From Candidatus Cloacimonadota bacterium (GTDB lineage: Bacteria; Cloacimonadota; Cloacimonadia; JGIOTU-2), in the NCBI GenBank assembly GCA_049903315.1, contig JBNGBT010000006.1:147914-211913 (forward strand): a stretch of DNA of 64,000 nt. The letters run 5' to 3'. Positions 1,788-31,647 of this stretch are shown here, in pieces (within the stretch, counting starts at the first letter, position 1; each line of letters opens with the position of its first letter). The translations under genes were made by a program, and so were the position numbers. The notes beneath the pieces are model-generated. The model was not told the origin of the DNA. It was given only the letters and a program-made list of their open reading frames with translations, and searched no databases.

Positions 1788-1920
1788 GAAAATGATGTCC
1801 TTTTTGTGGTTAGAGAAAATTCGACACCTGCTCTGTCAAGAAAAATCAAGTAAGAGGGAACTTACCCCTCGATACATGAGCTTACAAATAAATCGTATTG
1901 GTAGAAGTAATTGATTGCTT

Positions 1921-5918: not shown

Positions 5919-5985
5919 TTTGTGATTTCTTGCGAGAAATATCTCGTAAGTGCCTTAAAATTTGGGTAGTTAGGGGGGTTCGATA
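5910..5985. repeat. Junction A (attL-like): tRNA-Glu 3' core gggtcaccatt plus element left arm
   Basis: tcaccatttgtgatttcttgcgagaaa(t/a)atctcgtaagt recurs at 25672 and 30551. The minus strand reads YRTPLTTQILRHLRDISRKKSQMVTPRGIEPLLQE* over 5985..5878. Confidence 0.85.
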
Positions 5986-6011
5986 ACTCTTTGGGGCTTG
6001 ATACTTTTTCT

Positions 6012-6041
6012 AATAAAAAAGCCGCCACAAACGTGACGGCT
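6012..6041 (-). terminator. Intrinsic terminator of the lipoprotein gene
   Basis: Minus strand agccgtcac-gttt-gtggcggct followed by a T-tract. Confidence 0.75.
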
Positions 6042-6073
6042 CTATTCAATTTAGCAATAAAAGATGGATTGAA

Positions 6074-6700: not shown

Positions 6701-6739
6701 TTTATCTCCTGTAAAATTTTGATTTTGCATATATTACTC

Positions 6740-9868: not shown

Positions 9869-9907
9869 AGTCTTTCACTCCGTAAGCTATTGCATTATTT
9901 TAAGTTG

Positions 9908-9951
9908 AATGCTATATAGCAATATTCATATCATGAAAAAAAATCTGTCAA
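9908..9951 (-). promoter_or_regulatory. Promoter (TTGACA at 9951-9946) plus palindromic operator ATTGCTATATAGCATT
   Basis: Same 16-mer and same 22-nt spacing from TTGACA as at 11365-11408. Confidence 0.8.
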
Positions 9952-10035
9952 GAAATTACAAATTTATGAAAACCTTTTGATTTTATGTGTATGTGCTGGG
10001 CTGTATATATTTGAAGAAATGCTTGGAAAACTTTA

Positions 10036-11085
10036 TCAAAAAGGGGTACAGGAATCACGCATAATTAACTGTGCTGGAAGGATTTTGTGCTCATAGTCAA
10101 GCTCATTTCCGTTAATGGAATCAATGAGCATACTGACTGCTTTTTCAGCCATAGTTCCTATTGGAGCAGCATTTGTGGTGAGTGTTGGAAAAACCTTCGA
10201 TGCAACTTCTATATCATCGAAACCAATAATGCTGATATTATTAGGAATTTGCAGACCTTTTTCTTGGATCACTTTCATTGCTCCAATAGCCATTGAATCA
10301 TTTGCGCATATTATAGCAGTGGGAGGTTTTGGTAAGGATACGAAGTAATCCCCAGCAGCTTCTCCAGATTCATAAGAGTAATCTCCTCTATAGATTAATG
10401 ATTTATCGTGTGGTGATCCGTTTGCCGATACTGCCTTTTTGTATCCGAGAAGCCTGTCCTTGGAAACGTCAGAATCCATGAGACCGGTAACAAAACCAAT
10501 GCGTTTATGCCCGAGGGATAAAAGGTATTCAGCAGATTGATAGCAGCTGTTAAAATTATCTATTGTTACAGAAGGAATAGATTTATCTGCTGCAATATTA
10601 TCAAGGAGTACGACAGGAAAATACTTTTTAACTTCTTGAATATCATCTTCAATTCTAGGAAAGCAACAGATGATGACACCATCAATCTTTTTCTGATTTT
10701 TTAGTGGGTTTAGATTATCAAAATCTGTAAACAGAGATATCGTATATCCATTCTTTCTCACAGTTTCTTCAAGTGCCTTAAAAACTAGTGAATAATATGG
10801 GCTGGAGACACCTTGTTTAATGCCTTTATCCAAGAAAAAACCGATATTCCGGGTTACTTTTGGGCTCATTTTTCTACGGCTTACAAATGTTCCTTTGGTT
10901 GTGAGTTTATGTAAAATACCTTCCTCAACCAACTCATTCACAGCCTTGCGCACCGTCATGTAGGATGCGTTAAGTTCCTTTGCAAGAACTCTTTCTCCTG
11001 GAATTTTTTCAGTATAGTTTCCATTCTGAATATCTTCTTTAATCTTATCCTTTATATTCACGTATTTTAGAGTAGGTTTGCTCAT
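10036..11085 (-). CDS. GntR-HTH + LacI-type sugar-binding repressor (AraR-like architecture)
   Basis: KIPGERVLAKELNASYMTVRKAV...KGTFV HTH; VTIDNF, LGHKRIGF, ANDSMAIG, SIIGFDD, PTLTT motifs. Confidence 0.92.
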   Translation of the reverse strand: MSKPTLKYVNIKDKIKEDIQNGNYTEKIPGERVLAKELNASYMTVRKAVNELVEEGILHKLTTKGTFVSRRKMSPKVTRNIGFFLDKGIKQGVSSPYYSLVFKALEETVRKNGYTISLFTDFDNLNPLKNQKKIDGVIICCFPRIEDDIQEVKKYFPVVLLDNIAADKSIPSVTIDNFNSCYQSAEYLLSLGHKRIGFVTGLMDSDVSKDRLLGYKKAVSANGSPHDKSLIYRGDYSYESGEAAGDYFVSLPKPPTAIICANDSMAIGAMKVIQEKGLQIPNNISIIGFDDIEVASKVFPTLTTNAAPIGTMAEKAVSMLIDSINGNELDYEHKILPAQLIMRDSCTPF

Positions 11086-11364
11086 CGAGATCCTTATATT
11101 CTTATTTATTAATAATATTATTTATTATATTTGATTCATTAATAATATAGCAGAAGAAAATTCCACGGCTGATATTATAGTGAAATAATTATCATTGCTA
11201 TAGATCATATGGATACTAAAAAAGAATTTCAAATATAATTTAGTCAAGTAAACAATAAATAAATGTTTTTGATAAATATGCTATTATATCTATAGATATT
11301 GGATGCCAATTGATTGTTTGTAAGGGAACGATGAAGATAATTTTTTAAGTTTTTCTAAAAAAAA

Positions 11365-11408
11365 TTGACAAAAGAATTTGAAATTAATAGAAATTGCTAT
11401 ATAGCATT
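11365..11408 (+). promoter_or_regulatory. Promoter (TTGACA) plus operator ATTGCTATATAGCATT of the GH16-GH3 operon
   Basis: TTGACA 11365-11370; operator 11393-11408, the exact reverse complement of 9908-9923. Confidence 0.8.
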
Positions 11409-11452
11409 GATAGCTCGAAATAAAAAAATACTTCAATAAAGGGAGTTTAGCA

Positions 11453-14434: not shown

Positions 14435-14451
14435 TAAAAAAGGATAAATTG

Positions 14452-15918
14452 ATGAAAAGAGAAAGAGTTGAATCATCTAATAGCAGAAATTTAGTACCAT
14501 TTGGACAGAAAGTTTCTTTTGGATTAGGAATGTTTGCCAATCAAATGTTTCCTGCTGTCCTGGGTATATTTATGGTGGTCTTGGTCCAGGATCTGGGCTT
14601 CCCGGGCTGGATGTGGGGAATTTTATTTTTCCTGCCAAGGATATTTGACGCGATTACGGATCCCATCATGGGTTTTATTTCGGACAACACCAGATCAAAA
14701 TGGGGCAGACGAAGACAGTATGTCTTTATTGGTGCCATCATCATAGGCGTTGCTTTTGTTGTTATGTGGCAGTTGTACAGTGAGAATGGAGTAAATTACA
14801 ACTTTATTTATTTCCTTCTCTTTTCATTTGTTTTTTATCTAGGTCTAACTATTTTTAGTGTGCCTTACGTTGCCATGGGCTATGAAATGAGCAGCGATTA
14901 CCACGAACGCACAAGCATTATGGCCGTTGCCCAATGGATCGGCCAGTGGGCCTGGGTTATTGCTCCCTGGTTTTGGGTTATCATGTACAATCAGAAGTGG
15001 TTCCCGTCAGCTGATGTCGCTACAAGGAAACTTGCGGTATGGGTGGGGATCATTTGTATGTTGTTTGCTATGGTTCCAGCATTATTTCTGAAAAGCAGAT
15101 CTACAGTTCATGAACACTACTCTCCTCTTAACTTAAAATCAATCAAGGGTAGTTTATTAGAAATTTTTTCAAACTTTAAGGAAGCATTTAAGATTCCTCA
15201 GTTTGTAAAATTATGTTTATCAACGTTTTTTATATTTAATGCATTTAATACTATTGCAGCGTTTTCATTCTTTATCATAGTCTATTATTTGTTTAGTGGA
15301 AATGCAGGGGCTGCTGGAGTTTGGCCTACACTTTTCGGTAGCTTGGCTTCATTAGTAACTACTTTTTTAGTTATTCCCATTGTTGCCCGTATGTCCAGGC
15401 TATTGGGCAAAAAAAGAGCGTTCATCGTATCGCAGAGCATATCAATCATCGGATATATTCTGTTGTGGTTTCTTTTTGTTCCAGGGAAACCTTACATGTT
15501 TATCCTAGCGCTTCCTTTCTTTTCCTTTGGAATTGGAAGTTTATTTACCTTGATGATGTCGATGACTTCAGATGTGATGGATCTGGATGAGTTAAATTCT
15601 GGAAAACGTCGTGAAGGGGTATTTGGTGCTATTTATTGGTGGATGGTCAAGTTTGGCTTCGCTATCGCAGGATTATTAAGTGGTGTTATTATGTCAGTAG
15701 TAGGATTTGATGCCAGTGCTGCTACGCAAACTGAGGGTGCCATAATAGGATTGAGGATTTTTTATTCCGGATTGCCAATACTGGGTACGCTTACCGCCAT
15801 TTTACTGATGCGTAAATATGATTTAACTGAAGAACGTGCAAATGAGATTCGAGCTGAACTGGAAAAACGTCACGCTCAGAAAACTGAAGTTGAAGAACTC
15901 GATTTAGAGAAATCTTAG
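14452..15918 (+). CDS. MFS glycoside-pentoside-hexuronide (GPH) family sugar:cation symporter
   Basis: DAITDPIMGFISDNTRSKWGRRR and DELNSGKRREG motifs; about 12 hydrophobic segments. Confidence 0.92.
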   Translation: MKRERVESSNSRNLVPFGQKVSFGLGMFANQMFPAVLGIFMVVLVQDLGFPGWMWGILFFLPRIFDAITDPIMGFISDNTRSKWGRRRQYVFIGAIIIGVAFVVMWQLYSENGVNYNFIYFLLFSFVFYLGLTIFSVPYVAMGYEMSSDYHERTSIMAVAQWIGQWAWVIAPWFWVIMYNQKWFPSADVATRKLAVWVGIICMLFAMVPALFLKSRSTVHEHYSPLNLKSIKGSLLEIFSNFKEAFKIPQFVKLCLSTFFIFNAFNTIAAFSFFIIVYYLFSGNAGAAGVWPTLFGSLASLVTTFLVIPIVARMSRLLGKKRAFIVSQSISIIGYILLWFLFVPGKPYMFILALPFFSFGIGSLFTLMMSMTSDVMDLDELNSGKRREGVFGAIYWWMVKFGFAIAGLLSGVIMSVVGFDASAATQTEGAIIGLRIFYSGLPILGTLTAILLMRKYDLTEERANEIRAELEKRHAQKTEVEELDLEKS

Positions 15919-15928
15919 GATATATTAG

Positions 15929-17605
15929 ATGCGAAAGAATATATTTAAAACATTAGTTTTCAGTATTCTTTTAATATCACTTTTCGGTTGTGGAGTAAAT
16001 AGTAGTAAAAAACTTAACTCCACATCCGAAATTTTGCTTACTTCAGCTACTGGAGAAAAACTTGCAGAACAAAAAAATGTTAGTTTTCAATCTGGAAAGG
16101 CAACCGGAAATGTAATACAAATCTTTCCTGATAGCTTAAAACAAACTATCGAAGGCATCGGCAGTTCTTTCACAGAATCTTCTGCTTTTGTTTTAGCTCA
16201 TCTGGATGAACAGAAAAGACAGGAAGTGATGGAAAATATCTACGGGGAAAATGGAGCAAATTTCTCTTTGACCCGTACACATATCGGAGCTTGCGATTTT
16301 ACAGTTAAAGGCAAATATTCCTATGATGATGTAACAGGTGATACAGAATTGAAAAGCTTCAGTATCGAAGAAGATTTAGCGGGATTCCAGAAATCTGAAT
16401 TTCCGAAAATTCAAGATGAGAAGTTTGATCTTCTACCGATGATCAAACAGGCTTTGGAGATTAAAGCAAATCAGAAAGACCATGAACTCAGAATAATTGC
16501 TTCAGCCTGGACAGCTCCTCCCTGGATGAAGGATATCGAAGAATGGTATATTCCTGGTTCTGAGGAAAACAACTGGCAGGGAACTGGCGGAGCACTCAAA
16601 CCGGAATATTATTCTACATATGCAGATTACATTTCAAATTATCTCAATGCATACAAAGTAAGTGGTGTAGATATTTGGGGAATAACACCTGTAAATGAAC
16701 CACATGGCAATAATGGGCAGTGGGAAAGTATGCACTTCTCACCAGAAACACAAAATGAATTTATTAAGAAATGTTTGGGTCCCAGATTAAGAGAAAGTGA
16801 TCTCGCCGATGTAAAACTACTCATTTATGATCAAAATCGTGATGGACTTGAACATTGGGCTGAGGTGATCCTTTCAGATCCGGAAACCCAACCTTACGTG
16901 TATGGAGCAGCAGTACACTGGTATGAGAGTACTTATAAAGTGTATGAAGATGTTTTGGATCGAGTGCATGATAAATATCCTCAATACAAAATTATTCATA
17001 CTGAAGGATGCATTGATGATCTCGGTAAAGACCCACCAAATGGTGTAACTGACCCGGTGGGATACAAAGAAAAAAATTGGTTCAATAATGATGAATTCTG
17101 GTGGAACAAAAATGCTACTGATTGGGCTTATTCAGTTACCTGGCAGGGAGTGAATGCTGACGATCATCCTATTTATGTGCCAGTTCATAGGTATGCACGA
17201 AATATCATTGTGAGTATCGATCACTGGGTAAGTGGTTGGATCGATTGGAATATTATTCTTGATAAACAAGGTGGACCAAATCATGTAGGAAATTTCTGTG
17301 GTGCACCCATCATGATAGATACTGATGCAAGGAAGGTCTATTATACACCAATCTTTTATGTGCTTGCTCAATTCAGCCGTACGATCCGACCTGGAGATAA
17401 AGCAGTCGCAATAGAGCAATATACACCAGGACTTAGCGAGGATGATATGCATGCTTGTGCCACTATTAATGAAGACAATATGTTGAGCGTGCAACTTTTA
17501 AATACGACAACTAGAGCCATTACATATAATTTACAGATACATGATAAGTATGCAGAGATCATGATCGACGCAAATTCAGTTCAAACTGTACAGGTTCAAC
17601 TTTAG
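15929..17605 (+). CDS. GH30 (subfamily 1-like) glycosidase lipoprotein, probable beta-1,6-glucosidase/glucanase
   Basis: Lipobox LFGC; ASAWTAPPWMK, NEP, HWY, TEGC, WIDWN..LD..GGPNH motifs. Confidence 0.88.
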   Translation: MRKNIFKTLVFSILLISLFGCGVNSSKKLNSTSEILLTSATGEKLAEQKNVSFQSGKATGNVIQIFPDSLKQTIEGIGSSFTESSAFVLAHLDEQKRQEVMENIYGENGANFSLTRTHIGACDFTVKGKYSYDDVTGDTELKSFSIEEDLAGFQKSEFPKIQDEKFDLLPMIKQALEIKANQKDHELRIIASAWTAPPWMKDIEEWYIPGSEENNWQGTGGALKPEYYSTYADYISNYLNAYKVSGVDIWGITPVNEPHGNNGQWESMHFSPETQNEFIKKCLGPRLRESDLADVKLLIYDQNRDGLEHWAEVILSDPETQPYVYGAAVHWYESTYKVYEDVLDRVHDKYPQYKIIHTEGCIDDLGKDPPNGVTDPVGYKEKNWFNNDEFWWNKNATDWAYSVTWQGVNADDHPIYVPVHRYARNIIVSIDHWVSGWIDWNIILDKQGGPNHVGNFCGAPIMIDTDARKVYYTPIFYVLAQFSRTIRPGDKAVAIEQYTPGLSEDDMHACATINEDNMLSVQLLNTTTRAITYNLQIHDKYAEIMIDANSVQTVQVQL

Positions 17606-17614
17606 AGAGTTACT

Positions 17615-18730
17615 ATGAGAAAGTATGTATTACTAATCCTGCTCATAACAATTTCAGTAATGATATTGATTTCATGCAGCACGAGTACAACTCTCGAACA
17701 AATTCGAACAAAACTGGAATCCAAAGAGCAATTTGAGCAAAAAGATCCAACATCAATACGCGAATTTGAGCCTTACCTGAATGGAAGTTGGATTGGGAAT
17801 GCTGTTGCCTATAGTTGTTATCGGGGAGGACAAGCACCAGGAATCAAGGGACCGACAAAACAAGAGATCCTCGAAGATTTGAAGCTCATAAAAAAGTATT
17901 GGAATTTAATTCGCATCTACAATGCCGATGACGATGCTGAACGTATCCTGAGTGTTATCCAGGAACATGATCTTTCGATTAAGGTTATGCTGGGTGTATG
18001 GCTCGAGAATGAAGAGGAAGATTCTGTTAAAAGAGAAAATAACATAACCAATGTAGTGAGATCAATTGAATTGACTAATAAATATCCTGGAATAATTATC
18101 GCTGTTAATGTGGGTAATGAGACACAAGTTTTTTGGTCCTGGCATAGAATGAATACGCAAAACCTGATCCACTATATCAGAGCGGTTAGAAATAATATCA
18201 CACTTCCTGTTACTACTGCAGATGATTACAATTTTTGGAACAAACCAGAGAGTGAAATTATAGCAGATGAAGTTGATTTTATCGTTACTCATATTTACCC
18301 CTTATGGAATGGGAAGACATTGAATAATGCAATTCTATGGTTGGATTCAATATATCAAGATGTACAGAGTAAACATCCCGAACAACAAATAATCTTAGGT
18401 GAAATAGGCTGGGCAACTCAATACAATCCTGATAAAAAAGGAGAGGGTGAACAAGGTTCACTTGTAAAAGGTGAAGTTAGTATTCTTGCACAGGAAAAAT
18501 TTCTAATCAATCTCAATAATTGGATTGACCAAAATCAGATTACTACTTTTCTTTTTGAGGTTTTTGATGAGCCTTGGAAAGGTGGTGGTGATAATTCAGG
18601 ACCCACCGAAATTGAAAAAAACTGGGGTGTTTTTTATGAAGATCGTACCCCGAAAGAATCATTTAAGAACTTTTTGCTATATAAAACTAGTGCAGATGGC
18701 AACATGGAATTTAATATTTTACGAAAATGA
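17615..18730 (+). CDS. GH17 beta-1,3-glucanase/glucosidase lipoprotein
   Basis: Lipobox LISC; VNVGNE, PVTTAD, HIYPLW, GEIGWAT, FDEPWK motifs. Confidence 0.88.
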   Translation: MRKYVLLILLITISVMILISCSTSTTLEQIRTKLESKEQFEQKDPTSIREFEPYLNGSWIGNAVAYSCYRGGQAPGIKGPTKQEILEDLKLIKKYWNLIRIYNADDDAERILSVIQEHDLSIKVMLGVWLENEEEDSVKRENNITNVVRSIELTNKYPGIIIAVNVGNETQVFWSWHRMNTQNLIHYIRAVRNNITLPVTTADDYNFWNKPESEIIADEVDFIVTHIYPLWNGKTLNNAILWLDSIYQDVQSKHPEQQIILGEIGWATQYNPDKKGEGEQGSLVKGEVSILAQEKFLINLNNWIDQNQITTFLFEVFDEPWKGGGDNSGPTEIEKNWGVFYEDRTPKESFKNFLLYKTSADGNMEFNILRK

Positions 18731-18846
18731 AAAGTAATACTGAATTAGAAAATCAAAATAATTCACAAATGGAATCTTTGTTTGGTGGAGACCCAATCAA
18801 GATTTCAATAACAAGAAAATATGACAAACCCTAAAAAGGAGAAAAA

Positions 18847-20196
18847 ATGAAAAAAACAATTAAGTTGTTTGTTATTACTTTGTTCTTACTCTCAATGAGC
18901 ACTATTGCGTTTGCACAAAACGCACCAATTGATTTTGAACCAGGTGGATATGGAGCTGACTGGACATGGACAGTATTTGAAAATGATACAAATCCACCAG
19001 TTGAGATCATAGCTAATCCCGATGTCTCAGATCCAAATACATCAGCAACCGTTGCAAAATTTACTACACTGCAAACAGGTCAACCCTGGGCAGGATGCGA
19101 AACATTACACGGTTCTGATATCGGAACGTTTACCCTGGACCAAACAAACTGTACAATTAAAATTATGGTCCACAAACCTGTAATCAGTGATGTAGGTATC
19201 AAATTGGTGAAACCTGATGGCTGGTCGATGGGAGAAATTAAAGTTGCGAATACCCTCGTAGATGGATGGGAAGAGCTTACATTTGACTTCTCTAGCCAAG
19301 TATCAGATGGATATGATCAAATAGTAATTTTCCCGGATTTTGATTTGGCAGGCAGAACCCAAGATAATATTTGTTATTTCGATAATATCACATTCTCTGA
19401 ACAAGTTATCCCACAAGGCCCCACCGATCCTGCCCCAACTCCAACCCATGATCCAGATGATGTATTTTCTATTTATAGTGATGCTTATACCAATCTTGCA
19501 AATACGAACTTCAATCCGAATTGGGGACAATCTACTGTTGTAACAGTAAATTATCAAGTGAGTGGAGATAACACCTTAAGATATCAAGCGCTTAATTACC
19601 AAGGAACGAACCTTGGTAGTGTTGATGGTGGAGTCCCTCAGGATGTGTCTGAATATGATTATCTTCATGTAGACTTTTGGACTACGAATGCTACAACTTT
19701 GAATTTCTTCGTAATTGATCAGATCCCAGGCGAAGTGTCTTATTCATTGCCAATAACAACTGGAGAATGGGTGAGTGTAGATATTCCTTTGAGTTATTAT
19801 TCAACTGGCGGAGAAGACCTGACTGATATACATCAATTCAAGATTGATGGTGGTGATGGTTCAAGCACAGAAGTGTGGTTTGATAACTGGTATTTCTATA
19901 AAGAGGTTGGTATTGATGATCCCGTCTCTCCAACATCTCTTCTTGTAAAGAATCATCCAAATCCTTTCAAGCAAAGTACAACGATCAAGTTCTCTTTAAC
20001 AGAACCTGGCCATGTTGAGCTTAAGGTTTATGATACCAAGGGTCGATTTGTTGAGACACTTGTTGATGATGATAGATTGCCAAATACTTATCAACTTACC
20101 TGGAATGTTGATGACGCAAAATCCGGTATTTATTTCTACCGTCTAACAGTTAATGGGAAAATGATCGATACTAAGAGTATGATCATATTGAAGTAA
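18847..20196 (+). CDS. Secreted non-catalytic glycan-binding (CBM-like) protein with T9SS/FlgD-Ig CTD
   Basis: Signal peptide; two beta-sandwich modules ending YFDNI and WFDNW; PTDPAPTP linker; NHPNPF CTD. Confidence 0.75.
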   Translation: MKKTIKLFVITLFLLSMSTIAFAQNAPIDFEPGGYGADWTWTVFENDTNPPVEIIANPDVSDPNTSATVAKFTTLQTGQPWAGCETLHGSDIGTFTLDQTNCTIKIMVHKPVISDVGIKLVKPDGWSMGEIKVANTLVDGWEELTFDFSSQVSDGYDQIVIFPDFDLAGRTQDNICYFDNITFSEQVIPQGPTDPAPTPTHDPDDVFSIYSDAYTNLANTNFNPNWGQSTVVTVNYQVSGDNTLRYQALNYQGTNLGSVDGGVPQDVSEYDYLHVDFWTTNATTLNFFVIDQIPGEVSYSLPITTGEWVSVDIPLSYYSTGGEDLTDIHQFKIDGGDGSSTEVWFDNWYFYKEVGIDDPVSPTSLLVKNHPNPFKQSTTIKFSLTEPGHVELKVYDTKGRFVETLVDDDRLPNTYQLTWNVDDAKSGIYFYRLTVNGKMIDTKSMIILK

Positions 20197-20207
20197 TAAT
20201 CAATTTT

Positions 20208-20242
20208 CAGCCGGTACATATCTTTGTGCCGGCTGTTTTTTT
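20208..20242 (+). terminator. Intrinsic terminator or attenuating hairpin inside the operon
   Basis: cagccggtac...gtgccggctg followed by T7. Confidence 0.75.
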
Positions 20243-20297
20243 AGTATTGGGTTTATTCTCAAAGTATAAGGACGAAATCTTGAATCCTGAGATTGAT

Positions 20298-23200
20298 ATG
20301 CATTACCAGTTAAATACAAAGGGTGAGTTTGTTATCATTGATTATAACTCATCCAAACTATTCTCAAGTTTCTTCCCTGGAGTTGCCGGCAAAAACGGCA
20401 TTCCCATGTGGACGTTTTACGTAAATCGCGGACAATGCATTTGCAGCATGGGGGTGGAAGGAAAACATCATCCGGTCATGGAATTTCTTCCTGCGAATTG
20501 GGCTTATAATCTAGTTTCAAGTCAGGGCTTTAGAACATTTGTAAAACTGCCCGATCATCCCTCGCTCAAATTCTATGAACCATTCCAAAACAATTTACGG
20601 GATAAAGATATGCATCGAACACAGCGTATGATCATAACATCTTTCCAATTGAGGTTGGAAGAAATGAATCATACTCTGGGGCTTAAATTTACAATTGAGT
20701 ATTTTAATATACCTCAAGATAATTATGCTGGACTTGTTCGCAAGCTGTATATAGAAAATCTGAATAATGAACACATCAAAATTGAAGGTCTCGATGGACT
20801 GCCACTTATTATTCCCTACGGTCTTGATGATTATGGCCTTAAACATATGAGACGATTAGTAGAAGCATTTGTTGAAGTTACCAATTACGATACTAAAGTA
20901 CCTTTATTTAAAGGGAAGGTGAAGCCTGCAGATCGGCCTGATGTGGTAAGGATAAAGAAAGGGAATTTTTATATTGGTTTTGATAATGATTCAAAACTGG
21001 TTACTCCAATCGTTGATCCAGTGAAAATTTTTGGAAAGCGGGGTGATTACAATTATCCTGAAAATTTCTTAAAATCATCATCAGAGAATTTGATCAATGG
21101 ACAGATTTTTGAGAATCGTTTGCCGTGTGCGATGGGTGTTATTACTACTAACCTCGCAGCAGGTGAATCATTCACATATACATCGATTATTGGTCATGCA
21201 GGATCTGTTCAGGAATTGAATGAACTGGTACCTAAAATTACTAATCAAGAATACATTGAGAATAAAGCAACTGAAAACAAGAATATAGTTAAAGCATTAA
21301 GTCAACAAAATTTTATTTGTAGTTCGGAACCTGTTCTGAACCTTTATGCCAGACAGAATTTTATAGATAATACTCTGCGTGGTGGATTTCCCTACACAAT
21401 AAAAGGTAAAGAGAGTTCTACAACCCTGCATCTCTATTCACGCAAACATGGCGATTTGGAAAGGGATTATAATGATTACCGCCTCAATCCGACACCGTAT
21501 TCTCAGGGAAATGGGAACTTTCGGGATGTGAATCAAAATCGTAGATGCGATATCTTTTTCAATCCGGATGTGCAGGAAGGAAACGTTGAACATTTTTACA
21601 ATCTGATCCAGTTGGACGGTTTTAATCCACTTGTGATAAAAGAAGTCCGTTTCACAGTTTTAAATCAGGAAAAGCTGAAAAACATACTGGCCGAATATCT
21701 TGGTTGTGAAAAAATAGAAATTGTGAGTACATTTTTACAACAACCATTTGCCCCCGGTGAATTGTTGCTTTTCCTAAGAGAGCAAAAAATTGATGTTACA
21801 GATGATATTGATACCTTCATCGGTGATGTTCTCGGGGTTTGTAAAAAGAACTATGGTACTCAATATGGAGAAGGTTTCTGGACAGATCATTGGACGTATA
21901 ATCTGGATCTTCTGGAAAATTATCTGGCTGTATATCCTGACAAAAAATATTATATCTTATTCGATAAGAAATCATTCTCGTTTTATGATAATCCTCATCG
22001 TGTTCAATCCCGAGATGATAAATATGTGATCTGGGATGGAAAAGCCATACAACTGAGTTCGGTTGTTTTTGATGATGAAAAAGATTTATTAATCAAGCAG
22101 CGTACTTTAAACCAAAACAAGGTTCATACGAATTTTGGGAAAGGTGATGTTTATTATACGAACCTATTCACTAAAATACTTTCTCTGCTTGTTAACAAAT
22201 TTGCTTCTTTGGATGCTGAAGGAGTCGGTGTAGAAATGGAAGCAAATAAGCCGAACTGGTATGATGCGTTGAATGGTTTGCCTGGTTTACATGGTTCCAG
22301 TATCAGTGAAACTCTGGAAGTTAAACGACATATTTTATTCCTTTTAGAGTCCTTTGAAGAACTTGATCTAGAAGGTCAGAATTTGTTGGTTTTCGAAGAA
22401 ATGAAAGAGTTTTTGAACGAACTCCATAATCTTCTAAGGACGCAATTAACTCCCTTTGAATTCTGGGCTAAATCTGCATCTATTAAGGAAGAATATCGTG
22501 AAAAGACTCGATTGGGAATCAGCGGTAAAGAAGTAGTATTATTAAAAGATGATATAATTGTTTTTCTACAAGACGGTCTAAAAAAACTGGATGTAGGTAT
22601 CAAAAAGGCGTGGAACAAAAAGGATAATGTGATCTCTACATATTTCATTAACGAACCTGTTGAATACGAAGAAATAAAGCTATCTGATTCTAATGGAAAT
22701 CAAATTTTGAAGCGAAATGCAAGGGAAATGCCGTGCATTAGAATAAAAAAGTTCAAGCAAAGACCATTACCTCTATTTCTGGAAGGACCGGTTCATTACT
22801 TGCGTTGTAATACAAACAAGGAACATGCCGAAACATTTGCAACCAATATTAAAAAAAGCGGATTGTTCGACACTAAGCTGAAGATGTATAAAGTGAATGA
22901 ATCTCTGGAAGATCAGCCACCTGAAATTGGTCGTGCTAGAACTTTTACTCCAGGTTGGTTTGAGAATGAATCTATCTGGCTGCACATGGAGTATAAATAC
23001 ATGCTGGAATTGATGAGGAATGGTCTTTATAAACAGTTTTACGATGATTTCAAAAATGTTTTTGTTCCTTTTATGAAACCCGAAGTATATGGTAGAAGCA
23101 TTCTGGAAAACTCATCCTTTATTGTAAGCAGTGCAAATTCAGATCCATCATTACATGGTAACGGATTTGTCGCAAGGTTGAGTGGAGCGACTGCTGAATT

Positions 23201-23588
23201 CATTAATATCCTGATGTTCATGGTAATCGGGCAGAAACCGTTTGAAGTTGATAATAATGAGCTTCAGTTTTGTTTGAAACCTGCGCTTCCTGGTTGGCTA
23301 TTCACCAGGAAACCGTACAGTAAAAGATTATTCCTGCATGATAACTGGCAGGAAGTAGAATTTAAAGAAAACACATTCAGCTTTATGTTCTTAGGTGAAA
23401 TTCTCGTTACGTATCACAATCCGAACAGAAAGGATACTTTTGGTGTCAATGCTGTGGTACCTGCATCTTGGAAATTAATCGATGAAGAAGGAAATATAGA
23501 GATAATCAAAGATAACAAAATAAAAGGTGATATTGCTGAAAAAATCCGAAGAAGAGAGATAAAACGGATTTATGTAAATTTAAATTGA
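20298..23588 (+). CDS. Cytoplasmic beta-1,3-glucan phosphorylase, GH161-like
   Basis: FSSFFPGVAGKNGIPMWTFYVNRGQ, YSRKHGDLERDYN, GNGNFRDVNQNRR, WYDALNGLPG, ENESIWLHMEYKY; no signal peptide. Confidence 0.8.
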   Translation: MHYQLNTKGEFVIIDYNSSKLFSSFFPGVAGKNGIPMWTFYVNRGQCICSMGVEGKHHPVMEFLPANWAYNLVSSQGFRTFVKLPDHPSLKFYEPFQNNLRDKDMHRTQRMIITSFQLRLEEMNHTLGLKFTIEYFNIPQDNYAGLVRKLYIENLNNEHIKIEGLDGLPLIIPYGLDDYGLKHMRRLVEAFVEVTNYDTKVPLFKGKVKPADRPDVVRIKKGNFYIGFDNDSKLVTPIVDPVKIFGKRGDYNYPENFLKSSSENLINGQIFENRLPCAMGVITTNLAAGESFTYTSIIGHAGSVQELNELVPKITNQEYIENKATENKNIVKALSQQNFICSSEPVLNLYARQNFIDNTLRGGFPYTIKGKESSTTLHLYSRKHGDLERDYNDYRLNPTPYSQGNGNFRDVNQNRRCDIFFNPDVQEGNVEHFYNLIQLDGFNPLVIKEVRFTVLNQEKLKNILAEYLGCEKIEIVSTFLQQPFAPGELLLFLREQKIDVTDDIDTFIGDVLGVCKKNYGTQYGEGFWTDHWTYNLDLLENYLAVYPDKKYYILFDKKSFSFYDNPHRVQSRDDKYVIWDGKAIQLSSVVFDDEKDLLIKQRTLNQNKVHTNFGKGDVYYTNLFTKILSLLVNKFASLDAEGVGVEMEANKPNWYDALNGLPGLHGSSISETLEVKRHILFLLESFEELDLEGQNLLVFEEMKEFLNELHNLLRTQLTPFEFWAKSASIKEEYREKTRLGISGKEVVLLKDDIIVFLQDGLKKLDVGIKKAWNKKDNVISTYFINEPVEYEEIKLSDSNGNQILKRNAREMPCIRIKKFKQRPLPLFLEGPVHYLRCNTNKEHAETFATNIKKSGLFDTKLKMYKVNESLEDQPPEIGRARTFTPGWFENESIWLHMEYKYMLELMRNGLYKQFYDDFKNVFVPFMKPEVYGRSILENSSFIVSSANSDPSLHGNGFVARLSGATAEFINILMFMVIGQKPFEVDNNELQFCLKPALPGWLFTRKPYSKRLFLHDNWQEVEFKENTFSFMFLGEILVTYHNPNRKDTFGVNAVVPASWKLIDEEGNIEIIKDNKIKGDIAEKIRRREIKRIYVNLN

Positions 23589-23604
23589 AAATGGAGAATG
23601 TATA

Positions 23605-25536
23605 ATGAAAGATATTGAAGTTAGAATTTCTGAGTTATTAGTGAAAATGACTCTTGATCAGAAAGTAGGACAGATCGTCCAGCCGGAAAGGCAATTTGTT
23701 ACCCCGCAAGAAGTAAAGAAATATCATATTGGTTCAGTTCTCAGTGGTGGCGGATCGGTTCCCGGTGATAACAAGCCGGATGATTGGATAAAAATGAATG
23801 ATGCTTACTGGGAAGCTTCCATGGAAGAAGACGAAGAGCATCTGGCAATTCCGATCATCTATGGAGTGGATGCAATCCATGGAAACACAAACGTGAAAGG
23901 GGCAGTTGTTTTCCCGCATAATATCGGATTAGGTGCAGCTAATGATCCTGACTTGCTGGAAAGAATTGCTGCTGTTACTGCCAAGGAGATCGCAGCAACG
24001 GGCGTTGAATGGACTTTTGCTCCAACACTTGCAGTGGCTCGTAACGATCATTGGGGTAGAACGTATGAAAGCTATTCCGAAGACCCTAAAATTGTCTGCG
24101 ATTACGCCCCCAGATTTGTTAAGGGACTGCAAGGAAATTATGGGGAAGAAAACGTGATCGCCTGTGCTAAACACTGGGTTGGTGACGGAGCAACACTGCA
24201 TGGAATTGATCAGGGAGATATGTGTATCAGTGAACATGAATTACGTAGAATTCATGTTCCTCCTTACAAAGCTGCGATAGATGCTGGTGTGCTGACTGTG
24301 ATGGTTTCGTTGAGCAGCTGGTATGGAGAGAAGTGCCATGGTCACAAATTTCTGATTACTGATCTTCTGAAAAATGAACTGGGATTTAATGGCTTTGTGA
24401 TCTCCGATTGGGATGGTATCGATTATCTAGATAAGAGTTATGAAGAGTCTGCTGTAATGGCTATGAATGCAGGTATGGATATGTTCATGATCACCGGAAA
24501 ATGGAAAGAATTTATCCAACACATGAAAGCAAATATTCATAACGGCCACATTCCCATGGAACGTCTTGATGATGCCGTGCGCAGAATTTTGCGCGTAAAA
24601 TTCTTGTTTGGTATGTTTGAAAAACCGCGTCCTACAGAAAGAACACTATCGCTGGATCATTCTTGTTTTGGCTCACTGGAACATCGCGAAGTCGCAAGAG
24701 AAGCAGTTCGTAAATCTCTGGTCATGCTCAAGAATGATGAAGATATACTACCACTAAATAAAAATGCTCGAATTTTAGTTGCTGGGAAAAATGCTCACAA
24801 CCGCGGACATCAATGTGGTGGATTTACCGTAGCTTGGCAAGGTGTTGATGATAATGACGAGTCAAAAGACAAAACATATATCATGACAGATTCTGAAAAA
24901 GAGAAACCGCGAGATAAAAAGATAAGTAACGGAATATCTCATAGATCATCAATCATCGGCGGATCTTCGATTTGGGAAGGTATTCAAGCTGTTGCTCCAA
25001 ATGCTCATTTGAGTATTGATGGCTCAGATGCTGATCCTGCTAAATATGATGTAGCAATTGTTTGCATCGGGGAAGTCCCTTATGCAGAAATGCTTGGTGA
25101 TATTCGTGTTGAGGGATTGAGAAAAGGTTTAAAGATCAGCAAAGGTTCAAGTATTGATGACACGCTACCGGGTGATGAAATTCCTATTGTGAAAAAAGGA
25201 CCGTATGGAACTCATCTCTATTTGCATGAACTTCATCCCGAGGATATTGCAACTATTAAAAATATTACCAGCAAAGGAATTCCGGTTGTCACGATTATGA
25301 TCTGCGGTCGTCCGTTAGTTATTGAACAAGAGCTTGAAGAATCGAAAGCATTTGTCATTGCCTGGTTCCCAGGTTCCGAAGGGCAGGGAGTGGCTGATGT
25401 TATCTTCGGTGATTATGATTTCCAAGGCAAACTGAGTTTTTCTTTATCGCGTTTCGATCAGGAAAACTGGAACCTAGGCGATGAAAATTATAATCCGCTT
25501 TTCCCGTATGGATATGGATTGAAATATGATAGATAA
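23605..25536 (+). CDS. GH3 beta-glucosidase / exo-beta-glucanase, cytoplasmic
   Basis: YGVDAIHG, FPHNIGLGA, WGRTYE, AKHWVGDG, nucleophile SDW motifs. Confidence 0.93.
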   Translation: MKDIEVRISELLVKMTLDQKVGQIVQPERQFVTPQEVKKYHIGSVLSGGGSVPGDNKPDDWIKMNDAYWEASMEEDEEHLAIPIIYGVDAIHGNTNVKGAVVFPHNIGLGAANDPDLLERIAAVTAKEIAATGVEWTFAPTLAVARNDHWGRTYESYSEDPKIVCDYAPRFVKGLQGNYGEENVIACAKHWVGDGATLHGIDQGDMCISEHELRRIHVPPYKAAIDAGVLTVMVSLSSWYGEKCHGHKFLITDLLKNELGFNGFVISDWDGIDYLDKSYEESAVMAMNAGMDMFMITGKWKEFIQHMKANIHNGHIPMERLDDAVRRILRVKFLFGMFEKPRPTERTLSLDHSCFGSLEHREVAREAVRKSLVMLKNDEDILPLNKNARILVAGKNAHNRGHQCGGFTVAWQGVDDNDESKDKTYIMTDSEKEKPRDKKISNGISHRSSIIGGSSIWEGIQAVAPNAHLSIDGSDADPAKYDVAIVCIGEVPYAEMLGDIRVEGLRKGLKISKGSSIDDTLPGDEIPIVKKGPYGTHLYLHELHPEDIATIKNITSKGIPVVTIMICGRPLVIEQELEESKAFVIAWFPGSEGQGVADVIFGDYDFQGKLSFSLSRFDQENWNLGDENYNPLFPYGYGLKYDR

Positions 25537-25594
25537 TATCGATAGATAAAAAATCAACTTGTGGATTTCAAACAAGATTAATTGTTCTTTGAAT

Positions 25595-25756
25595 TTATAG
25601 TACATCTTTCAACACCTCATTCATTACCACGAGTTCTTTGTAGATTTCTATGTAATCTTCGAGGTTAAGGATCACCATTTGTGATTTCTTGCGAGAAAAA
25701 TCTCGTAAGTAATTTATGATAAGTAAATTAAGGGTGTTCGATAAAGAGCACCCTTT
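25595..25756. repeat. Junction B (attP-like): right arm + ggatcaccatt core + left arm
   Basis: 25608-25756 is identical to 30487-30635 (149 bp); its left arm matches 5913-5951. Confidence 0.9.
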
Positions 25757-25808
25757 CTCTTATCCTAGCAATACAAAATCTATAACTGACACTATATCAG
25801 TGAATTGC

Positions 25809-25830
25809 GGGGTTCGATTCCCCTTGGGTC
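25809..25830 (+). repeat. Isolated copy of the tRNA-Glu T-arm/acceptor 3' segment
   Basis: ggggttcgattccccttgggtc versus tRNA ggggttcgattccccttggggtc (one G missing); a more decayed copy lies at about 30689-30712. Confidence 0.75.
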
Positions 25831-26323
25831 TATTAGGCAATTCTGATATTTTAATGAATAATTTACTTCTTATTTGAGTTGTGGATCCGAGGATGGGTTT
25901 TTATATACAGAAAACATAATAAAAAAAATTGACACCCATTACACAATTCCAATTAATCTAGTTCAAAGGAAAAAATATGATGGCAACGAACGATAATTGG
26001 AAGAATGTATTGGGAGGACATACCCCCCCCATTTTATTTTAGTAACTAACGCATATTATGCAAGTTACCACAAACCGGCATATTTTAACAAGGAAAAACA
26101 TAGCAAAAATACAATATTACTATTTCTCGGGAAAAATAAATTACTTCATTCCGACCTTACTATTCCGGTTCCCGGGAATAGTGGGGTGCAAGGAATATGA
26201 GTACTGAATCGGCTAAGGTTGGATTGAATATGATGTTGTGGGATATGTATTATGGGTCGTTCTTTTAAAAGAAAATGTGTTAATTATTAGTTCATTAAAT
26301 GACAATGAGACAAAAAAGGAGAA

Positions 26324-28155
26324 ATGATGAAAAAGTATATTTCACTATTAGTGGTACTTATAATATTATTATTCTGTAGCAACTTATTTGCAGGTTATCT
26401 TTATGTCGAAATATGGAATGCTACAGGATATGAGATGAATGATTGTTGTATTTATCTTAACATCTCAGAAGAAGTTAGTGGAGCAACATGGCAGCCTGGG
26501 TTTACACCTTATGTGTTTGAAGTTGATGATCCCTCCAGTGTATATGTATGGGCTTTTTGTTATGCTGATTGCTATGGTTGGGAATTTTATGCGAATGGAG
26601 ATGATTACTCTTACTGGAATCCGAATACACAGCATTGGGAAGCTTCTGTAGAAGTTAATGGTGTGTATAATCCTTCACAGATAAATTTTACTATTACTGT
26701 TAACAATGAAATCGATGAAGCATCCAATTGTAGTTTGATCAGAAATCCAAACACTAATCCGGAAACTCTCTTTGTAAACCAAACGATTTCTACTGGGACA
26801 ACAACCTATACTGAATATGAGATATATGTAGATGATGAACTAATGGTTGAGGGTGACGTTGATGGATTTTATTCCGGACAGGTATACGATGTAAGTGATT
26901 TGGAAGTTGTAGATTATAATTTTAACTCTTCAACATATGTTTTGGATATCTATGCAGAGTTAGACTTAGAATATGATGATACTCCTCCTGATTATGACTA
27001 CAATGTAACCAGTTTATCTTCATCAGGTTGGAACTGGGTCTCTTTCCCTGTTCTTGATCCCGATTATGACGATCCTATAGACTATGTTCTGGAACCAATA
27101 CTCGATGATTTGGATGAAGTTGTTCATGATCAGGATTACATATATTGGACTGGTACTAGTTGGCAAAACAATATTGGAGATTTTCAAAGTATCGATGGAT
27201 ATAAGATACAGATGGACGATGATGCTGAACTTGAAGTTGCGGGATGGGTTGAAGATCCTGATACAGAAATACCCCTCTACGAAGAGGAGGAAAATTGGAT
27301 AGGATATTTTATCCCATACAGCCATCACCTTCATGGGCATTTGGAGATGCCTGGCAATATCTAAACTGTATTCAAGCAGAAGATTGGAGTATGTACAAAA
27401 AGAACGGGATATGGTATGGACCTGCCGGTGTCACTATAGATTATGGAGATGGTTATGTAGTATGGGTTGACGATGATTGTACTCTTGAATGGGTTTGTTT
27501 TGGTCAAATGAAAAGCTATGAGAAACCTGAATCACAATATTTCTCTTATGAGGAGAAGGCAAGTTATGAAGCAATCGATATTACAGGCATTGATGAAAGT
27601 GTGTTAGAAATAGGTGTTTTTGAGAACGATATTTGCGTCGGAGCTTCAGTTGTGGAAAATGGTTTTGCACAAATTCTTGCATATACTGAGAATGTAAATA
27701 AAAAAGGTTCTGAACTTACTTTTCAAATAGTGAGTGGAAAAGGAGATAAGCAAGAGATATGCAGCTTTTATGTGTATGATTTTGATAAAAATACCTACAT
27801 AAAAAAGAATCTCATCTCCGGCAATCAGAAGTACTCACTCGTTAAATTGAGCAAGGGAGAGGGAAACCAAACACCTATCGAGCTTTCACTCTCACAGAAT
27901 ATTCCGAATCCCTTCTCTTCTCATACTCTTATATCATATTCAATTCCGAAAGAATCTCATGTGAAGATATCAGTTTACAATTTAAAGGGCCAAAGAGTGA
28001 AAACTCTCGTTAATGAAATATTATCAGTTGGTAGCTATTCTACAGTATGGAATGGCACTGATGATAAAGGTATCACATTACCAAACGGTGTTTATTTCTA
28101 TAAACTTGATAATGACAATACATCAATCAGTAAAAAAGTAATAATAATGCATTAA
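26324..28155 (+). pseudogene. Secreted acidic CTD protein split by a single-base deletion at about 27324 (or a sequencing error)
   Basis: ORF1 has the signal peptide and reads ...ENWIGYFIPYS; ORF2 continues SPSWAFGD... to the NIPNPF CTD; agc ca- tca cct needs one extra base. Confidence 0.8.
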
Positions 28156-28170
28156 TTAGCATATATGAGA

Positions 28171-28205
28171 ACAAGACCGTATTGAAAAATACAGTACGGT
28201 CTTGT
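28171..28205 (+). terminator. Strong intergenic hairpin (terminator or mRNA stabiliser)
   Basis: acaagaccgtattg-7nt-cagtacggtcttgt; no clear U-tract. Confidence 0.6.
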
Positions 28206-28232
28206 AACTCTTACTAATATTTCTGGAGTCAT

Positions 28233-30458
28233 ATGCAAAAATTTTTAATTCAATTAATTCTCACAATATTATTTGTTTGTTTTGCATCATTTTTATATTC
28301 TCATATAATCATCGTCGATATCAATGGAACAGGAAATTACACGAGCATACAGGAAGGAATAGAAAATTCATCAAGCGGTGACACCGTTTTGGTACATCCC
28401 GGAACATATTATGAGAATATAAATTATAATGGAAAGAACATTACGGTAGCAAGTTTATATATCAATACACAAATTGATTCATTTGTAAAAAATACTATAA
28501 TTGACGGTAACCAGAATGGGAGTGTGGTAACCTTCGAAAGTGGAGAAGATACCTCTGCAGTTCTTTGTGGATTTACTCTTCAAAATGGAAGTGGTACATA
28601 TAATTTACATAATATTAGAGGTGGAGGAATTTTTTGTATCAACTCTAATCCTAAGTTATTAAGTTGTAATATCCAAAATAATAATGCCGAGTTCGGTGGT
28701 GGTATTCATTGCAGATATTCAATGATACATATCTCAGGAACAACGATCCGTTATAACCATTCGATATATGACGGCGGAGGGATATATTTAAGAGACGAGT
28801 CTAATATCATTTTCGATAGTATTAACCGATCAAACATTTATTTAAATTACGCAGGATGCGGTTGTGATATAGGTTCTTATGAAATAAGCGGTATAGAAGT
28901 AATAGTAGATACGTTTACCGTTATTGAACCAGATGATTACAATACATATCCTTATGAAAGCTATGATTTTGATATTTATAGTAATAAGATAGAAATGATA
29001 AATTGTGACCTATATATTAGTCCTTTGGGTAATAACACAAGTAGTGGATTTTCACCTGATGATCCATTGAAAACAATATCCTATGCGATGACAAAGATAA
29101 AGTCGGATAGCATAAGCTGTAATACAATATATCTATCAAATGGGATATATTCACCAGCTACGAATGAGGATTTATTCCCGATTAATTGTAAAGATTATGT
29201 TTCTATTCAAGGGGAGGATAAGGATTTAACTATTCTTGATGGGAGTAATGAATGGTTTTTACTATATTCCTATGAAGACAATGATTATTCTATAAAAGAT
29301 ATTACATTACAAAATGGTTTTAATGATATAACAGGAGGGGGTATGAGTATTCATTATGGACAAGATATATTTTTGAAGGATATAAATTTTATTAACAATA
29401 AAGCTGAAGTGGGTGGTGGAGGATTGAATATATTTGAAACACAGGGGGTATTTGAAAATTTAACAATTCGTAACAATTCGTCTGATGGAGGAGGTGGTCT
29501 CTTTGTTTCTAATAATTCAAATCCTGTATTTATTAATTGTATTATCGATAGAAATAATACAATTACTCCAGGTTGGGGATATGCAGGAGGAGTAAGTTGC
29601 ACAGTTGAGTGTAATCCAGTATTTATTAACACGGCAATAACAAATAATGAATCAGATGAAACAAGCGGATTAAGTGCTTCTGGTGGTGCTGGGGATTATT
29701 GCGATCCAATTCTAATAAATTGTACTATTTGCGATAATTCAGAAAACCCATATGGAACTATTTATCAAGGAGATGGATCTCATATTAGTTTAATAAATTG
29801 CATATTAAGGAATTATTCAGATGATGAGGTTGTATTCTCTACCAATCCACCAGCAAAAAAAGTCACTGTATCGTACTCAAATATTAAAGGTGGTATTGAT
29901 GCTATAAACACGAATAACAATGGTAGCATTATCTGGGGAGACGGCAATATAGACGAAGATCCGCTGTTTGTTGGCGGGGATCCCTTCAGTTATGAGTTAA
30001 CACCAGAATCTCCCTGCATCGATGCCGGCACACCGGACACAACAGGACTGCATTTACCTGCAACGGACTTAGCAGGTAATCCGAGAATATTCAATGGAAG
30101 AATAGATATCGGTGCATATGAGTGTCAGGATACAGTAAGCGTGGATGAACCGGACACGAGTTTTATTCATAATTTGTATTTATTCCAGAATACCCCGAAT
30201 CCTTTTACGAATGAGACGGAAATATTGTTCATCACTGCGGATTACGAAAGAGTAGAAGATTACACACTTTCCATATACAATACCAAAGGACAGCTTGTCC
30301 GCAGGTTCGATGGTAGAACTAATAATTTTTGGGTAAAGACAAAGATTGTCTGGGACGGAACGGATGAACGGGGCAAACACGTAGCACCCGGAACATATTT
30401 ATATAAATTAGAATACAACGGACATGCAGTGGTGAGGAAGATGGTGAAGGTGAGATAG
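28233..30458 (+). CDS. Secreted parallel beta-helix (pectin-lyase-like/DUF1565, choice-of-anchor Q-like) protein with CTD
   Basis: SIQEGI...GDTVLVHPGTYYENI; GGGI repeats; DPLKTISYA; SPCIDAG..DLAGNPRI..IDIGAYE; NTPNPF CTD. Confidence 0.82.
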   Translation: MQKFLIQLILTILFVCFASFLYSHIIIVDINGTGNYTSIQEGIENSSSGDTVLVHPGTYYENINYNGKNITVASLYINTQIDSFVKNTIIDGNQNGSVVTFESGEDTSAVLCGFTLQNGSGTYNLHNIRGGGIFCINSNPKLLSCNIQNNNAEFGGGIHCRYSMIHISGTTIRYNHSIYDGGGIYLRDESNIIFDSINRSNIYLNYAGCGCDIGSYEISGIEVIVDTFTVIEPDDYNTYPYESYDFDIYSNKIEMINCDLYISPLGNNTSSGFSPDDPLKTISYAMTKIKSDSISCNTIYLSNGIYSPATNEDLFPINCKDYVSIQGEDKDLTILDGSNEWFLLYSYEDNDYSIKDITLQNGFNDITGGGMSIHYGQDIFLKDINFINNKAEVGGGGLNIFETQGVFENLTIRNNSSDGGGGLFVSNNSNPVFINCIIDRNNTITPGWGYAGGVSCTVECNPVFINTAITNNESDETSGLSASGGAGDYCDPILINCTICDNSENPYGTIYQGDGSHISLINCILRNYSDDEVVFSTNPPAKKVTVSYSNIKGGIDAINTNNNGSIIWGDGNIDEDPLFVGGDPFSYELTPESPCIDAGTPDTTGLHLPATDLAGNPRIFNGRIDIGAYECQDTVSVDEPDTSFIHNLYLFQNTPNPFTNETEILFITADYERVEDYTLSIYNTKGQLVRRFDGRTNNFWVKTKIVWDGTDERGKHVAPGTYLYKLEYNGHAVVRKMVKVR

Positions 30459-30473
30459 GAACCGAGAAACAAA

Positions 30474-30635
30474 TCACAGTATGTCCTTCAACACCTCATT
30501 CATTACCACGAGTTCTTTGTAGATTTCTATGTAATCTTCGAGGTTAAGGATCACCATTTGTGATTTCTTGCGAGAAAAATCTCGTAAGTAATTTATGATA
30601 AGTAAATTAAGGGTGTTCGATAAAGAGCACCCTTT
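30474..30635. repeat. Junction C (attP-like), copy of junction B
   Basis: 149 bp identical to B; weaker homology to B continues to about 30712. Confidence 0.9.
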
Positions 30636-30795
30636 TTTATTTTCCATTAAATACAAAGTTTATGACTAATCCTATATCAATGAGTTGCAGGATTCGTTTC
30701 TCATTTGGTTTCTTCAAAGTTTTCTTTTAAAAAAATAAAAAAGCCGCCACAATCGCGACAGCTTTATTCACTTTAGCAAATTAAGATGGATTGAA

Positions 30796-30921
30796 CTAAT
30801 TTATTTTTGAGACGGTTTTCAATTCTGTATTATAATAATATCCCCATTCGCCTATTGCTGCTAATGCCTGTGCTGGATCGTTGTAGAGTGGCAAAAGATT
30901 CATTTCAGAAGAATCATATAA
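30796..30921 (-). pseudogene. 3'-terminal 41-codon relic of a homolog of the 6074-6700 lipoprotein
   Basis: LYDSSEMNLLPLYNDPAQALAAIGEWGYYYNTELKTVSKIN* versus LYDPSEMNLLPLYNDPAQALAAMGEWGYYYNTELKTISKIN*; the terminator and spacer at 30735-30795 are also homologous. Confidence 0.9.
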
Positions 30922-31552: not shown

Positions 31553-31619
31553 TAACCTCATTCAAACCGCAAGCTCTTTATAAATCTCAATGCAATCTTG
31601 GAGGTTAAGGGTCACCATT
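31553..31619. repeat. Junction D (attR-like): diverged right arm + gggtcaccatt core
   Basis: aacctcattc...aatcttggaggttaagggtcaccatt aligns to the B/C right arm and is followed directly by a terminator. Confidence 0.85.
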
Positions 31620-31622
31620 ATT

Positions 31623-31647
31623 AAGCCGTCACAACCGTGGCGGTTTT
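31623..31647 (+). terminator. Probable original, displaced tRNA-Lys/Glu terminator
   Basis: aagccgtcac-aacc-gtggcggttt a few nt after the last att core. Confidence 0.7.

Follow-up and report, generated by a model that had tools for sequence, protein, structure and literature searches.

The window (the whole 64,000-nt stretch of a Candidatus Cloacimonadota contig, C66, that was analysed) contains a tRNA-Lys(ttt) gene at 5749..5823 and, as its downstream partner, a tRNA-Glu(ttc) gene at 5844..5918, both on the plus strand and both called by ARAGORN. An 8-bp core is common to the 3' end of the tRNA-Glu gene, the target, whose last bases it forms, and to four sites, A (5912..5919), B (25671..25678), C (30550..30557) and D (31611..31618). 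At site A the tRNA lies left of the core and a P' arm right of it, sites B and C carry a P arm on the left and a P' arm on the right, and site D combines a P arm on the left with a hairpin on the right; in the order A, B, C, D the sites look like attL, attP, attP and attR. P' arms are called left arms below, and P arms right arms. Sharing among the four sites is limited to 8-10 bp at the extreme 3' end, which is also true of intact elements of large serine recombinases (LSRs), with about 10 bp in common with the tRNA at site D. An empty site consisting of tRNA, core and the same kind of hairpin opens a contig of a relative (G008:C63), adding an empty attB to the short common core and the attL- and attR-like ends of the window. 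On that contig (L055) the empty tRNA-Glu site, at 1-130, lies 14.9 kb from an attP-like site at 14865-15100; the same genome carries an occupied tRNA-Glu site on C32 and, at an unrelated location after an RND efflux gene, a tRNA-Glu 3' half with a left arm (G008:C11, L054, 9500-9620).

At site A, the minus strand reads in frame from the motif YRTP (Tyr codon 5983-5985) through arm A (5920..5991), an apparent in-frame relic of the last 24 codons of an LSR body, and then across the core codons and 11 antisense-tRNA codons to a stop at 5878-5880, the stretch 5878..5919 corresponding to a tail of the integrated form. A hairpin lies inside arm A (5929-5950, plus strand), and a copy of the host tRNA-Glu terminator hairpin (6022..6039, plus strand) marks the left edge of the first cassette. 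The right arm of site B (25595..25678, minus strand) encodes a putative native tail of 27 codons and a stop; the core is an attP-like hybrid junction, and the left arm (25679..25805, minus strand) appears to be a frameshifted relic of an LSR 3' end that carries two hairpins on the plus strand, the second of which (25730-25755) is terminator-like. Beyond it lies a copy of the tRNA-Glu T-arm with the first host bases, most of the core missing (25809..25838, plus strand). Site C repeats this layout, with a 27-codon tail in its right arm (30474..30557, minus strand), an attP-like core and a left arm followed by a decayed T-arm copy, a hairpin and a 185-bp stub (together 30558..30918); the stub is an 89% match to the start of the first cassette. 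The tails of B and C stop at the same codon, and in both left arms one nucleotide is missing about 47 nt from the core. The right arm of site D (31555..31618, minus strand) holds a decayed tail at an attR-like core, reading from an ATG at 31618 to codon 18, where a 1-nt deletion is followed by NEV; next to it is the host terminator hairpin (31623..31646, plus strand), displaced from tRNA-Glu and of the same kind as after the empty site in G008:C63. These minus-strand peptides had been described in a first-pass annotation and are all found where it placed them. The eight synonymous differences that it listed between B and D are also present, but its count left out four non-synonymous differences in codons 3-17, a span with six synonymous ones.

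Measured from core to core, the sites delimit stretches of 19,759, 4,879 and 1,061 bp, which hold a beta-glucan cluster, secreted-protein genes and the stub, respectively. Cassette Y (5920..25670, 19.76 kb) is a cluster for beta-glucan use with GH2-like, GntR/LacI regulator, GH16, MFS, GH30, GH17-like and GH3 genes, and cassette X (25679..30549, 4.88 kb) carries genes of secreted proteins with FlgD-Ig/Por tails; both are without a recombinase. A scan of 16 window proteins between 1921 and 33828 found no recombinase, so that the gene with Resolvase and Recombinase domains (with or without a Zn ribbon) is absent from the element in the window, and PF00589 has no match on the window contig. Genome-wide, there are six tyrosine recombinase matches and a single match to PF07508, on contig C6 at tRNA-His. 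This intact 548-aa serine recombinase frame (G000:C6:1336-2982, L001) runs into antisense tRNA-His, and its contig ends before a far end. We read sites A-D as the probable boundaries of cassettes that lie in tandem and lack a recombinase, with A at the left end, D at the right end, and B and C at the two junctions between them.

Arms related to those of the window occur in G002, G003, G004, G005 and G008, with a weak match in G012. In G008, a 125-aa open fragment at tRNA-Glu(ctc) runs into antisense tRNA (G008:C9; L034 and L035 are the same sequence and not independent). With tRNA-derived residues left out, arm A is identical to this fragment at 11 of 19 positions, and the fragment in turn is 26% identical, ungapped, to the last 104 residues of the intact 504-aa LSR of G211. 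Two contigs of a sediment sequencing run (X19) extend arm A in frame to the PEG motif of the family, with the spacing seen in intact enzymes; the extension is a 30-letter consensus with an agreement of 0.8 and serves as a lead only. A body-only profile of the family gives arm A an E value of 0.31 within the window, where A, B and C rank first, while a stronger profile match to arm A (E 3.5e-7) owes much to its tRNA part. Because this chain of homology holds without tRNA-derived residues and intact LSRs occur at tRNA-Glu, the arms are almost certainly relics of the end of an LSR gene whose frame crosses the core, as the first-pass annotation had proposed. Most of the left arms no longer read in frame: 1-nt frameshifts are found in B, C, both copies of G003, G002, G005 and G008 (C32 and C63), only A and G008:C9 are in frame among the copies of the genus, and over the last 15 codons synonymous change is not in excess. 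On the tRNA strand the left arms fold into strong hairpins (z about -7 in B and C, -4.3 in the intact G211 element), which likely explains the conservation of their DNA, and it is probably as RNA hairpins terminating the tRNA transcript that these arms have persisted.

Intact relatives show what the parent may have looked like. Two genomes of the same class (G211 and G185) encode intact 504-aa LSRs, with domains assigned by homology, at tRNA-Lys/tRNA-Glu(ttc), and the frames of both run into the antisense tRNA. A second core is located 7.0 kb away in G211 and 8.9 kb away in G185 (0.005 and 0.02 expected by chance), and G227 has the same layout at tRNA-His with the second core 32 kb away. At these far ends, tails of 44, 45 and 30 codons (G211, G185 and G227, respectively) lie in register with the core, and a hairpin follows each core. 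A frame that crosses the core and is open at both junctions is thus seen in all three intact elements, and its separate halves are seen in arm A and in the tails of B and C; the earlier proposal of a parent with two possible tails is borne out by these relatives. Between G211 and G185 the tails have a pS of 0.49 and a pN of 0.11, compared with 0.48 and 0.165 for the body. Far ends were found in three of seven intact elements; three contigs stop first, and one 19.7-kb stretch is without any. Among 16 LSR places in 232 genomes, ten read into tRNA or tmRNA, four do not and two were not scored. At one locus (G144:C11, L071) two serine recombinase genes are adjacent, the second running into antisense tmRNA, like DsiA/DsiB or Ccr pairs. 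Just beyond the far end of the intact G211 element (L050, 7713-11791) lie genes that by eye resemble cas9 and cas1.

The 27-codon tail is under purifying selection. Over six copies and six frames, only the proposed frame is free of stops, with a pN/pS of 0.11 (pS 0.57, pN 0.064), whereas the other five contain 6-27 stops and give ratios of 0.29-5.97; the copies are related and recombine, so pairwise comparisons are not independent tests. In codons 3-27 of seven copies, 4, 3 and 19 columns vary at codon positions 1, 2 and 3, respectively. Tail pS (0.63 for C/G003, 0.55 for B/L031) is close to the 0.62-0.67 measured in those genome pairs for alaS and the cargo genes, and tail pN is 0.02-0.08, compared with 0.047 in alaS. 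The relic at G008:C9 has its far end 2.2 kb off, with a tail clearly of the window's kind (0 of 5000 shuffles). Likeness of the window tail to the tails of intact elements is weak (1340 and 72 of 5000 shuffles); against natural tails it was reached by 98 of 20000 shuffles, in a fixed register and for a pair picked after looking, with a profile E of 0.028, and a profile built from 21 natural tails did not find the window tail. The LNLED tail of the window is tied to the LSR family by the far end of the G008:C9 relic together with this weak likeness.

No search returned an intact LSR ending in the LNLED tail. The possibility, raised with the original observation, that no recombinase ends in the window's peptides fails for the left arm, where intact LSR ends were found; for the LNLED tail these searches found no intact protein. 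A protein search with the B peptide gave no longer protein at E<=10, and none of 314 candidates obtained with the 125-aa fragment is a direct parent. Viral contigs yielded no parent; a GTDB scan yielded one locus, with the same 125-aa fragment; a scan of 50 of 64 metagenome parts yielded six loci, none with an intact LSR; and no intact LSR at tRNA-Glu was found in 21 genomes of the family. Among the 25 matches listed for each of phages and plasmids, only ordinary LSRs of at most 29% identity appeared. Neither peptide has a match in Pfam, none of 12 PDB sequences reaches the C-terminal part past residue 412, and the Atlas yielded nothing but unnamed clusters of 81-88 aa. A tRNA-targeting LSR family with a swapped tail was not found in the searched literature, from which subscription papers were largely absent.

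A structural model of P0013, a natural tail-bearing relative that is 40% identical to the G211 enzyme in alignment, suggests where such a tail might sit. Tail against body scored 0.73, compared with 0.00 for the best of three controls; of 157 solved complexes, 116 attain the mark, as do 2 of 215 mismatched pairs, a calibration that applies approximately here (own alignment). At least 84% of contacts recur between runs, and partner pLDDT is 73 or higher. Given domain borders read from sequence, the predicted contacts fall at the foot of the coiled coil, on both of its strands (residues 346-354 and 425-436), and on the helices after it, and the model buries a hydrophobic face of the tail. In this prediction the tail packs against the base of the coiled coil, near where the directionality factor (RDF) binds in the SPbeta integrase. 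Because two halves of one protein pass such a comparison easily, through likeness to a normal fold, the model points to a likely packed helix and does not bear on regulation.

The mechanism we propose starts from a parent circle in which the LSR gene would span attP and end in the native 27-residue tail. Crossover in the core, which we infer to be the work of this LSR class, would move this tail to the far end and leave the enzyme with 11 tRNA-antisense junk residues; losing the packed helix would likely turn the integrated enzyme down, holding the element in place. We lean towards this account as a whole, from the recombinase-less array and its LSR relics to a tail swap that turns the integrated enzyme down. 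Against it, antisense-tailed proteins dominate protein libraries, without sign that they are inactive.

What the window preserves is a dead remnant of a known design in a variant directed at tRNA genes; the design, with attP inside the integrase gene, is in print for DsiB, Mx8 and SSV. In the ssrA islands of Dehalococcoides, the accessible text of McMurdie et al. (2011; PMC3146451) describes an LSR gene, dsiB, whose 3' end overlaps attL in every case, the stop codon lying only beyond it, as well as tandem islands and 15 islands without an integration module. Its authors suggest a complete enzyme only in the circular form or behind an adjacent island, mention regulation as a possibility, and raise reading by a neighbour's LSR (PMC3146451). 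Those islands differ from ours in having a tmRNA target, a 20-bp repeat and a six-gene module including dsiA and dsiB; here the target is the 3' end of a tRNA gene (tRNA-Glu in the window), cores are 8-12 bp long (8 bp in the window) and the module is absent from the window. Selection on the tail and a docking site, given here, are absent from the passages on DsiB available to us (PMC3146451). In the archaeal SSV "suicidal" integrases, the site lies in the gene, which is split on integration, and hybrid enzymes arise from pieces of different origin, according to the part of the source at hand (PMC7253208). As far as that text goes, they are of the tyrosine class and fall into two large inactive pieces, whereas here the last 27-45 residues are exchanged.

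The integrase of phage Mx8, which we take to be a tyrosine recombinase, follows the same principle. Its attP lies inside int, and an excerpt of a review describes integration as making a new 3' end that alters the behaviour of the enzyme, changing its specificity rather than inactivating it (PMC6070905). Mx8 is counted among the integrases of Islander (2015), which states that targeting of tRNA genes is not known for serine recombinases (PMC4383910). The Mx8 integrase is a phage enzyme that was tested experimentally; here we have a serine enzyme with a short tail and without phage genes. The features of tyrosine-integrase tRNA islands of the Islander type, a displaced tRNA fragment at the far end and a tyrosine integrase gene, are lacking in the window, where D shares about 10 bp with the tRNA and C66 is without PF00589. 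A tool that requires both a tRNA fragment and an integrase gene would overlook cores of 8-12 bp and integrase-less cassettes. In SCC/SCCmec, some cassettes likewise lack their own recombinase, the target is a protein gene, and we know of no ccr gene that crosses the site. SCC/SCCmec (Ccr) elements are described in the available part of PMC3146451 as tandem cassettes made by LSRs at one site.

Directionality control is a central question for serine integrases, which are genome-engineering tools, and the tail could go further than turning the enzyme down, as a built-in directionality element with one reaction favoured with it and the other without it, so that a separate factor would be unneeded. 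We consider this possible but unlikely. In the SPbeta integrase, the accessible text describes a short RDF helix at the coiled-coil hinge that controls direction (PMC11722253). The LSR domain plan is the same as here, but the RDF helix resides on a separate protein (PMC11722253), whereas the helix modelled here would belong to the enzyme itself, as a tail that exists only when the frame spans attP. The contacts predicted for P0013 at the coiled-coil foot and following helices fit a directionality element, as do the empty and attP-like sites on G008:C63, which are the expected products of attL x attR although other routes could have made them. However, presence in the circle and loss upon integration are the opposite of what an RDF-like helix should show, unless the helix serves to shield the site. 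In its broadest form, this idea would posit a widespread family of tRNA-targeting LSRs whose last helix is their own directionality control, docks at the place of the RDF and is removed by integration, with recombinase-less cassettes lending a tail to the enzyme of a neighbour at the hybrid attP and so gaining mobility; we regard it as equally tentative. If true, control would need no separate factor, since the enzyme would edit its own last helix through integration. G211 and G185, as complete small elements (7-9 kb), offer both natural forms. The copies in the window are dead and therefore matter as a pointer, not as a working system.

Somewhat less likely still, the swap could be an accident of the position of the core, the tail being an ordinary structural end that is selected in the circle and the antisense-tailed enzyme being about as good. 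Members of the family number 15,636 at E<=1e-10. The best 150 of 42,088 library matches include 133 full-length proteins, of which 95 end antisense-tRNA-like, 21 have a helical-looking tail and 17 are unclassed, the antisense ends having been sorted by a loose pattern and the helical ones by eye, without genomic context; such a preponderance favours an accident. So do a trivial reading that McMurdie et al. give for DsiB in the text at hand (PMC3146451) and a model of the SPbeta integrase in which, in the part available, the last 28 residues are disordered (PMC11722253). The tail's pN, as low as that of alaS, argues against an accident, as does the predicted burial of its hydrophobic face in the P0013 model.

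That the right-arm peptide is now an independent 27-residue protein starting at the ATG in the core is improbable. Eight of the 11 copies seen have a whole or nearly whole frame (there is a frameshift in D, G002 falls 4 codons short, L033 has lost the core and L032 is 3 codons longer), the synonymous distance of the peptide equals that of the cargo genes, and no intact tRNA-Glu LSR was found in the 21 genomes, all of which an independent peptide would explain. However, its first codon varies between ATG, TTG, CTG and GTG, fixed by the base after the tRNA CCA, and the DNA upstream differs between attP-like and attR-like copies, with no common ribosome site by eye. The damaged copies are those at the array ends (small numbers), and the C tail is a mosaic that resembles B by the core and G003 at its end, the pattern expected from renewal of the arms by recombination, to which it points. 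The tails probably stayed clean through selection in active elements, or through use by the LSR of a neighbour at the hybrid attP, together with renewal by recombination between arms. Two tail copies (L032 and L033) are on one contig, each followed by an apparent transposase fragment.

The arrangement of the cassettes differs between relatives. Cassette order in the window is Y, X and a stub of Y, compared with attL, an X-like cassette, attP and Y in G003 (G003:C41, L056); in L031, Y adjoins attR, and in G002 attL and attR lie about 350 bp apart, around an almost empty cassette. The array provides the host with a 20-kb beta-glucan cluster whose position varies between relatives. Cassette Y may be captured flanking DNA, because the host terminator hairpin occurs genome-wide at 6022 and 31626 only, with a mismatched copy after C. 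Sites B and C are identical over 149 bp (25608-25756) and are therefore not independent copies, and since this repeat collapses in contigs of the sequencing runs, the Y-X order is without independent bridging. Read depth is about even (179, 150 and 154 in run X3), and both junction types also occur in G003. Among the joints listed for run contigs mapped on B-D and A, none requires an excised or empty form; such contigs drop rare forms, and at B the joints listed come from arm A or from paralogs that map to the repeats. We infer an order of events that built the array and a helper acting in trans that moved the cassettes. The LSR at tRNA-His in the same genome was considered as this helper and rejected, its C-terminus being without a score against the family profile.

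An array built by a tyrosine integrase crossing in the T loop, with the peptides as passengers, is very improbable: the T-arm copy (T-arm itself 25809-25830), also found in G002 and G003, and the six tyrosine recombinase matches in the genome speak for it, but A-D share 8-10 bp at the very 3' end only, like intact LSR elements, and the window contig is without a tyrosine recombinase match, so that such an enzyme may account for the T-arm copy alone and is unlikely for sites A-D. The T-arm copy lies about 135 bp from the core, is common to G002 and G003 and has decayed in C; the LSR relic breaks off at it, at 25809.

Three further genes of the window are of note. The interval from alaS to tRNA-Lys (1860-5700) contains a gene for an S8 peptidase with a FlgD/Por tail, which is missing at that position in G002, G003, G005 and G008. 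In cassette X, a single gene extends over two frames (26324-28155; 346 and 286 aa), and a relative in run X14 has one extra base near 27323 compared with it. Beyond site D, seven repeats of about 153 nt (32053-33046) lie within the gene of a 662-aa secreted protein.
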